Both the position numbers and the translations under genes were made by a program. A model generated the notes under the pieces. It worked only from the letters and a program-made list of their open reading frames with translations. It made no database searches and was not told where the DNA came from. This document shows positions 56,001 through 59,000 of a DNA stretch of 64,000 nt, in pieces. This DNA comes from Chrysomallon squamiferum (Eukaryota; Animalia; Mollusca), in contig CM022671.1 of assembly GCA_012295275.1 (NCBI GenBank), forward strand, positions 19,778,001 to 19,842,000, in the 5' to 3' direction. The stretch's first letter is position 1; each line of letters starts with the position of its first letter.

Positions 56001-59000
56001 GTAGCGATTCCACAGACGAACCTCTTTATCATCAGAAATGTCAAACATTCGCCTCATTTCCTTTTCCAGAGCATCTGACAAATAATAAAACAGAAACATT
56101 AACGTAAACAAATTTTCTGCTTTCAAGAACTATAACAGACAAGGAAATTGTTAACTTTTTTTTATGAATCTGAAAGAACAGAACTTCCAAAATAAACTCC
56201 ATTCTTCTATTCAACATATTTATACCTTTTAGATTTGTTTTCTTTTTTGAAAATGTTAATATTTTATTACAATTCATACTAATATGAATTAATAATTCTT
56301 CTGAATTTAAATATTAATAATTATTTAATATTTTTCTAAACATATAAAAAAGAAATGATCTTTATAAAGGAGATATTATTTCTCTATACATTTAAAAAAA
56401 AAAGAAAAAAGAAAGGACGTTTATCTCTTAAATCTGTTTGTAAAATATACAGAAACAAAGCATGCAACCATGCAAGTTAATATCCTCACTATTTATCTCA
56501 GAATTAATGTTTTAATAAACAAAACAAAAAAGATTTTTTTTAATCTGTCCATAACCAGATATATCATTTCTTTTAATTTATAAACAACATTTAACATGCA
56601 CTTGCTCCTACTGTCATTCTTATTTTTAAAAAGTTATATCTAACAAAAAAAAACACAAACAGAAACAATTGGGAACATATTTGAACACTGAAAACAAATA
56701 AAATATACTGTATAATCATTACAAAGTACTGTCTAATAATAGTTCTGATGCAGATTTCTTTTGCTGTTGTTTTTTCCCATCATTTTCATATTTGTTTAAC
56801 ATAAGTCTATTCAAATCAAGTTAAAAGCTCAGTTGGCAAAAATAAAAATCAATAATAAAAAATGTATTAATGCAGTGTTACACACATAATAAAAGTGCAA
56901 TTGCGTAATAATTACATACCAAATTAGTACTGCATGAATTATATCCACTGAAAAATAGATTTCAGTTTTCCTCTGTTTTAAACATGTTTTTGTAATCCAA
57001 TTTAGTGGAACAACTTAGCCCTTTGAACCTATAACCATCTACATGAGAAAACTTGACAAATCCCACCCCACAAAAATAATGTATTTCTCAGTTTACATAT
57101 AACCTCTAGAATTCATATGTAAAGGTTATGAATGACAACACATTTTCCATAAGAAAGAAAACTCCATATAGTTCATCAATTAGAAATACCAAGAAAACTA
57201 AATACTAACATAACTAAGAAAATAGTTAAAAGAAAACCACTAGATGATAATAAAAAACATTCTGAGGAAATCAGTCCTTATCCAAACTACTATAGCATAG
57301 TCTAATCATTAAAGTGACAACTTGTTTCAGTTGATCAGCTGATGGGAGGCTTTGTTCTGTCAAATACAGAGAAAAACATGGCAAACACTCATGTTTTACT
57401 TTTAACATCCATTTATAAAGCAAGCCAATAATCAAATCTGAACCAATTTCTGATTTCTTTAATTATGATTGTAGTGTAATAGTAACTTTATTATTACTAC
57501 ATATTTAAAAAAAAGATGAATGTTTATGAAGCTTGTGTGTGTGTGTGTGTATATATATATATATATACACATACAAATTAACTAACCTAGGGTTGTTCTT
57601 TTTTTTAGATAAAAAATCAAGAATATGATAAAATTAGATCCAGGAAGTAAAGGTTCAAAGAATTAAGCACATTTTTTTGGCATATGTGTTTAAATATGTA
57701 CCTATGGTTGTTATTCTACTGAAATCTGCCGGGGTAGCAGTTTCCATAATGTCATCATCAGTACTATTGGAATTATTGCAGCAAGAAAGCTTTAGACTTT
57801 GTAGGTACACCTCAACCTTAAGCTGCTTCATATATACACCATCATCTATGACCTTTCTAGCATTGGGATCCTGCAATTATACAGATTGAAGCATTCTAAC
57901 TGAGGAATGGATATTTGCCAGATGAGCTTAACTATAGAACATGCAGTACAAACAAAACAGATGTGTTGAAGTGAAACATTCTGTCACACCAGGACTTTCC
58001 TGTTTACTTCAAATACATTGGATTAGTACAGATCATTTCAGGTCCATTACACTTAATGCTTTTTATTTCATTTGTTTTTCAATATTTACAATTCAAGCTG
58101 TATGTCACTGCGAGAAAAAGCATCTTAAAAACTGGTTTTAAACTGCATTTCATAAATAAAAAATGTGAACAGTTGTAATAACATTTTTTTTTAAATAGTA
58201 GTTCCTGTTTGTTGTTATGTACACTTGAAAAATTGTTTCAGAAATGACTAATCATTAAGTGAAGTGAGGTGAAATGATCTTTCATCTATACAGGATACAA
58301 TCCATTAGCACCAAGAAGTAGAACACAGAAAATAAAATAACTTCAATAATACCTGTCACGTAAACTTGAGTTTGCAGTGTAATACAAATTTGTTTTAATA
58401 ATAAATAAAAAGATAGTGATAAGAATTTTGTATCCTCCCTTAAAATAAATTTATGAATTTCCCTAAAGACTCTTACTGCAGAGATTCTTTTAAATAAAAA
58501 TATAAAAAAAGTTGTTGAAGGTCTATTCTGGAGCAGTTATAATGTTGGAAATCATTAGAAAACTACTGTATTACATGAACAGAACTCAGTTTACAATAAC
58601 AGGCTGTTACATTCTGTTATCCTGGTGCTACCTATGGTATCAGTTCGACTGAACTGCTTGTTCACATATTTGTTGCATTCAGAATTTTCACAAAGCTTCA
58701 GGTCGAGAAGGTACACTTCCACTTTACAATGTTTGACAAACATCCCCTGCTCAATGACCTTGCGTGAAATAGACTCCTAAAAAAAGATAATATTAAATGA
58801 CCCTATAACAAACTTGCATATCTATCTGTATATCATTTTGAGATTATTGTCTAAATATGTACTTTGTCAGAATGAAAACTGAAAGTTATTCAACTCATAC
58901 AAACCTGCATTCTCTGCCATCAGATATGAAGTAAAAAAAATGTAATACCTGTGTCTGAACCTGAATCCACTGAACCAGGTACAAACATGTTGCACAATGC

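Follow-up and report, generated by a model that had tools for sequence, protein, structure and literature searches.

The question raised by this locus is whether a single gene for a USP15/USP4-type deubiquitinase produces two enzymes that differ in one small docking loop, the DU finger (term from PMC5372499), by choosing between two tandem copies of an exon, and what such a choice would change. The window (the whole stretch of 64,000 nucleotides of Chrysomallon squamiferum that was analyzed) carries this gene on the reverse strand at about 60893–47090, and proteins of Gigantopelta aegis map along the whole of it (tblastn). Coding exon 1 (60804–60893, bounds approximate) was placed by tblastn with G. 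aegis residues 1–30 at 90% identity; exon 2 (59720–59844, DUSP) by RNA contig pieces with the joint 59720>59355 and by tblastn; exon 3 (59246–59355, DUSP), constitutive and upstream of the pair, ends in phase 0 and has RNA joints to both copies, named 4a and 4b; exon 5 (55929–56074, UBL), constitutive and downstream, starts in phase 1 and has RNA joints from both. The remaining gene on the same strand (47090–55579: UBL end, linker exons, and catalytic USP domain) was assigned by tblastn of the G. aegis isoforms, RNA joints, and Pfam domains of the orthologue, both isoforms of which carry DUSP, Ubiquitin_3, and UCH, the architecture of the USP4/USP15/USP11 family. An optional linker exon of 15 codons follows the UBL (55107–55154, reverse strand) and is present in G. 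aegis isoforms X1 and X2, not in X3 and X4; optional linker segments akin to it occur in Littorina, Pomacea, Argopecten, and Tubulanus and resemble vertebrate exon 7 skipping. A Ser-rich open frame of 220 codons at 40286–39627 (reverse strand) is probably an exon of an adjacent gene.

Exon 4a (58776–58632, reverse strand, 145 nt) encodes the DUSP end, the DU-finger tip QGMFVKHC, and the first UBL strands; exon 4b (57870–57702, reverse strand, 169 nt) is the alternative version, whose tip reads DGVYMKQL and whose loop has an acidic insertion of eight residues. The two are separated by an intron of 761 nt and are identical at 92 of 145 aligned nucleotides and 22 of 48 amino acids. The sequence-only reading, which had proposed two homologous exons about 0.76 kb apart, agrees with these coordinates in lengths, peptides, and spacing; its statement that splice sites are intact and the phase shared, with both or neither exon shifting the frame, was borne out as well, since both exons are bounded by AG...GT, have the same phase and a length of 1 mod 3, and give a stop at codon 53 when joined together and at codon 7 when both are left out. 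Either exon by itself preserves the reading frame. From residue 108, both peptides match solved USP15 DUSP-UBL chains (4a, E 2e-17; 4b, E 3.5e-5). This match of 4b is above chance, and just 5% of 56-codon stretches in this region are so much as open. No third exon-4 copy was found in the 64-kb window with an HMM of exon-4 peptides. The 4a peptide is identical to G. aegis 4a at 46 of 48 residues and to frog USP15 at 33 of 48, and the 4b peptide to G. aegis isoforms X1/X3 at 46 of 56, with the insertion common to both.

Five public runs cover the stretch and were used as contigs; four are recorded as RNA and come from a single study. All four joints expected of mutually exclusive use were found, each in three or four of the four RNA runs: exon 3 to 4a (4/4), exon 3 to 4b (3/4), 4a to exon 5 (3/4), and 4b to exon 5 (4/4). 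Double inclusion (4a joined to 4b) occurs in one run of four at depth 2, contig depth being no measure of expression level, and the joint from exon 3 to exon 5 that skips both was found in none of the four, the contigs of which drop rare forms. Every RNA joint listed has GT-AG ends; the short side of most of these joints spans only 23–29 letters (148 and 111 in X4), and the chain exon 3–4b–exon 5 is inferred from separate joints, no single listed record covering all three. The fifth run, DNA-like and of unrecorded kind, has continuous intron coverage up to 57525 and no spliced joints, its listed long pieces stopping below 4a and 4b. The RNA confirms 4a and 4b as a homologous mutually exclusive exon pair that is spliced to the same neighbors. 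Among other forms, a contig of X4 (record 23) carries a portion of 4b's upstream intron (57871–58148) joined to 4b and exon 5 onward, and N-truncated RefSeq isoforms starting from exon 5 (G. aegis X5, Haliotis cracherodii X3) would be without the DUSP domain.

A second, inverted copy of part of the gene lies at 1–12115 (forward strand); it runs from the intron after 4b past the stop and is 95–98% identical to 44362–57488. It lacks about 1 kb of intron, ends at an N gap (12116–12315), and carries scattered substitutions at conserved residues, with no frameshift in the six exons checked. Directly after the gap, 12319–13353 duplicates 62964–64000 in the same orientation (1 kb, 95% identical), which fits an assembly duplication of the region; copy 2 is a duplicate of recent date or else a haplotig of the assembly. 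Both the RNA and the DNA-like run agree with copy 1, sharing five of the eight listed differences with copy 2. Gene conversion with copy 2, or RNA misassigned from it, was rejected, as exon 5 differs between the copies at six nucleotides and the RNA matches copy 1; a single copy-2 letter occurs in one RNA run, and the listed RNA pieces are otherwise copy 1.

As to how one exon is chosen over the other, a steric block from a distant branch point is ruled out by the 761-nt intron and the existing joint of 4a to 4b, and AG dinucleotides upstream of the 4b acceptor, at 27 and 31 nt, speak against such a branch point; U2/U12 incompatibility is likewise ruled out, neither donor resembling the U12 consensus. 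Exon clusters of the docking-site/selector (Dscam) type use conserved competing intronic base pairing. The exon-4 region holds 112 short inverted repeats in AT-rich sequence, none above background, and the introns of two metagenome loci with the same tandem arrangement (L021 and L023) show no conservation past the exon edges. One inverted repeat (56924–56943/57933–57952, with a perfect core of 10 bp) lies on either side of 4b and might loop the exon out, and is indistinguishable from chance. In a small sample of exon-4 donors that took in L018, L020, L021, L023, L025, and the window, six of six donors in two-exon genes depart from GTAAGT/GTATGT (GTAC or GTAG), and three of four in single-exon loci read GTATGT. 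Exclusivity probably rests on weak donors, on a 4b acceptor that is weak too, and on loss of the frameshifted transcript: regulated use of weak splice sites would select the exon, and nonsense-mediated decay would clear the double-inclusion product.

Relatives were collected by an exon 5 search (33 matches) and a wider profile (797 matches, 120 listed, 30 of these clusters opened). Among the matches listed, 6 of the 32 named species of lophotrochozoans have both isoform types annotated (Gigantopelta aegis; Haliotis asinina, H. rubra, H. cracherodii, and H. rufescens; the chiton Liolophura sinensis), and the isoforms of each compared pair differ across the exon-4 segment only; in G. aegis, X2/X4 carry 4a and X1/X3 carry 4b. 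Also among the matches listed, and with annotation gaps possible, 22 of 32 named species have 4a only (caenogastropods, heterobranchs, cephalopods, scallops, Tegillarca, Solemya, Lingula, and Tubulanus) and four heterodont bivalves (Ruditapes, Mya, Dreissena, and Mactra) have only a 4b-like segment. All vertebrate proteins retrieved have the 4a-type segment only. An ENA open frame adds a further 4b exon of 51 residues, and 2 of 30 metagenome loci, L021 and L023, carry a 145-nt 4a and a 145-nt 4b in tandem with intact AG/GT. With the 4b peptide alone as query, none of five candidates was scored (word-indexed search) and one protein was found among 50%-identity representatives; cluster representatives hide isoforms, so this scarcity is no evidence of absence. 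In a quick tree of the flanking region (L004 left out), the window gene pairs with G. aegis (99, starred), as befits a gastropod closely akin to it, and L021 and L023 group with Lingula and Tubulanus and lie outside the starred gastropod and bivalve group (SH-aLRT 88, unstarred), so they are likely not molluscs. Two metagenome loci spanned from exon 3 to exon 5 (L018, L022) have a single 4a, and one (L025), grouping with heterodont bivalves (99, starred), a single 4b-like exon; single-exon states are thus genuine in both directions. In L014 and L019, the whole DUSP-UBL coding block is tandemly repeated with diverged linkers before one locus, another route of diversification.

Both checks that the sequence-only reading had set for itself turned out in its favor: RNA splices into 4b, and an open 4b is kept in the six named species, the ENA exon, L021, and L023. 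The purifying selection it expected was seen where nucleotides were available: between L021 and L023, 4b has 17.5 synonymous and 5.5 nonsynonymous differences (dS 1.14, dN 0.05, dN/dS about 0.04), and 4a has dN 0. That reading had argued for selection from the open frame and the eight-residue difference; selection stands (dN 0.05, dS 1.14), and a conserved length of eight residues does not. The excess of 4b over 4a is eight residues in the window and G. aegis, three in the ENA exon, two in Haliotis, and none in the chiton and L021/L023; all these length changes between lineages preserve the frame, and by this comparison of sequences the insertion is lineage-specific and not the conserved feature.

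Whether the duplication happened once was addressed with an exon tree (48 columns; one miscut H. rufescens 4b row dropped), in which all 13 4b-type rows lie on one side of a branch with weak support (56/85); four scenarios of local or independent duplication are not rejected (p-AU 0.22–0.38). A single origin is favored on the shared 4b tip letters, which read K-Q/S/A-L, mostly with an acidic residue at 124 and Y127; the 4b exons of the chiton, heterodonts, and L021/L023 also have Y-P after KVEV. It speaks against counting the heterodont bivalve exon as a 4b that overall it shares 27 of 48 residues with chiton 4a and 20 of 48 with chiton 4b, as slow evolution of 4a would lead one to expect, but as a drifted 4a would too. 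The exon was likely duplicated once, early in lophotrochozoans, with later loss of one copy in several lineages.

What the exchange alters can be read against the human proteins. In USP4, the SART3 determinants are L126, F127, V128, and H130; V128 is buried in a SART3 pocket, F127A abolishes binding, linker swaps with USP11 move SART3 binding between paralogues, and SART3 shuttles USP4 as well as USP15 to the nucleus [Park et al. 2016, PMC4914101]. The tip of 4a, M-F-V-K-H, carries these residues (L/M126, F127, V128, H130), and of 181 motif matches in 213 collected proteins, a set with redundancy in which vertebrates abound, 149 read QGMFVKHC. The tip of 4b, V-Y-M-K-Q, lacks the determinant set: positions V128, H130, and C131 are changed in 13 of 13 4b-type exons, and F127 is Y in the molluscan ones and retained in L021/L023 (4b tips: DGVYMKQL in the window, DGVYLKQL, DGTYTKQL, DGMYLKQL, DGMYYKQL, QGMFSKQL, and EGVYSKSL-like). 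Full loop length, G125, and K129 are retained in 4b, and the stretch K-V-E-V-Y, with E134 and Y136, in both exons. When the G. aegis 4b isoform was modeled, most ten-residue blocks of DUSP and UBL reached pLDDT 60–91, and the best structural matches were USP15/USP4 DUSP-UBL (E 1e-28 to 1e-20); the insertion is a low-confidence loop (142–152), and the tip (pLDDT about 71) is a short helix instead of a clean hairpin. A model of a 120-residue fragment (pLDDT 59) was left out.

From these comparisons we hold it fairly probable that 4a docks on SART3, that 4b binds SART3 less or binds another partner, and that catalysis is unchanged. The splice choice would switch the docking loop of a USP15/USP4-type enzyme: the 4a tip would insert into SART3 and bring the enzyme to the nucleus and its U4/U6 snRNP substrates, and the 4b tip would replace the inserting residues with the DUSP-UBL fold kept, as the model predicts. 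Because the catalytic exons are common to both forms and the 4b tip is altered, the 4b enzyme is proposed to be catalytically normal and differently targeted, for example kept from the spliceosome.

The strongest rival, which we rate as possible though doubtful, is that both isoforms bind SART3 and that 4b tunes affinity, domain orientation, dimerization, or another surface (first UBL strands, loop). The kept loop length, G125, K129, and KVEVY would suit it; the changes F to Y, V to M/L, and H to Q are partly conservative, and SART3 binding may tolerate them. Heterodont bivalves with only the 4b-like exon presumably still need a spliceosomal deubiquitinase. Single-exon genes of coral-like loci and of one jellyfish have Y at 127 and N, S, or D at 130, and such cnidarian-type sequences weaken the claim that 4b cannot bind SART3. 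Against this, several 4b exons have S, T, or Y where the buried V128 would stand, and the near invariance of 4a from molluscs to vertebrates suggests an intolerant pocket.

It is improbable that the swap acts on catalytic turnover, in which the DUSP-UBL unit helps ubiquitin leave, and not on the binding of partners. Exon 4 does span the interface of DUSP and UBL, and the geometry there affects how USP4 is activated, but E134 and Y136, which USP4 needs at this interface to release ubiquitin, are the same in 4a and 4b, the other activating residues sit in the shared DUSP exons, and USP15 relies much less than USP4 on this mechanism [Clerici et al. 2014, PMC4243247]. Of the two surfaces that the sequence-only reading had entertained, the regulatory one, taken as a difference in catalysis, is without support here for the same reason, E134 and Y136 being kept in both exons. 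That 4b is a decaying duplicate or an output-lowering device with no functional second protein is largely refuted and very improbable, for despite its weak acceptor (60% pyrimidine), the X4 contig with retained upstream intron, and its apparent absence from many lineages, it is open and in frame in six named species, this genome, the ENA exon, and two contigs, has dN/dS about 0.04 and only frame-preserving length changes, and shares its tip signature from chiton to gastropods.

The favored reading, a switch of docking loop, has several counterparts. Homologous mutually exclusive exons, or substitutions derived from tandem exon duplication, are well known (PMC9741552, PMC5740500, PMC7954323), and the present pair is like them in being tandem, of equal phase, used one or the other, old, under purifying selection, and exchanging one structural element; it is unlike the usual class in its 24-nt length difference and in that what it exchanges is a loop mapped as a protein-docking site. 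Human USP15 and USP4 with SART3 (PMC4914101; PDB 5CTR, 5JJW) share the tip QGMFVKHC and the DUSP-UBL-USP architecture with the 4a form of the snail enzyme, and the snail gene has an alternative version of the DU finger besides. The DU finger of vertebrate USP11 is without SART3 determinants (PMC4914101, PMC5372499), and 4b may work alike, but USP11 comes from a gene of its own and its loop is three residues shorter, whereas 4b arises by splicing and re-letters a loop of full length. The earlier suggestion that vertebrates diversify this linker through USP4, USP11, and USP15 holds for the shorter loop of USP11 and fails for USP4 and USP15, whose linkers are almost the same (PMC4914101). Exon 7 skipping in vertebrate USP4/USP15 is alternative splicing that biases partner choice in the same family (PMC5343593, PMC4624187), with both exon-7 forms binding SART3 (PMC5343593), and an optional exon in the linker is known from the molluscan genes as well; exon 7, however, is a cassette in a disordered linker, and 4a/4b exchange homologous pieces of the folded DUSP-UBL unit.

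No description of mutually exclusive exons in USP4, USP15, or USP11 was found in the full-text literature, in which subscription journals are mostly outside the scope. Exon 7 skipping is the only splicing event discussed in the available text on family evolution (PMC4624187); the accessible parts of PMC4735762 contain neither "mutually exclusive" nor "invertebrate," those of PMC4494069 no match for "USP," and the accessible supplement of PMC9741552, short and possibly not the full gene list, no USP4, USP11, or USP15. The sequence-only reading had known of no account either, and the isoforms are present unremarked in RefSeq. The pair 4a/4b is a real, conserved, and, it appears, undescribed member of a well-known exon class.

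Between molluscs and mammals the DU-finger tip has hardly changed, and it is the mapped contact with SART3 by which USP4 and USP15 reach the nucleus and the spliceosome. A selected natural alternative of this loop from one gene is a clean pair with which to probe other partners of the loop, and 4a/4b offer a way to ask whether SART3-independent USP15 forms a distinct functional pool; single-exon lineages permit tests of partner coevolution. Tentatively, and against our own expectation, an early-lophotrochozoan splicing switch might decide SART3 docking of the only USP4/15-type deubiquitinase, so that splicing would control its own deubiquitinase, and heterodonts might have kept just the noncanonical exon, with the USP15–SART3 interface lost or coevolved. 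If this is true, heterodont bivalves would be a natural experiment on an otherwise near-invariant interface.
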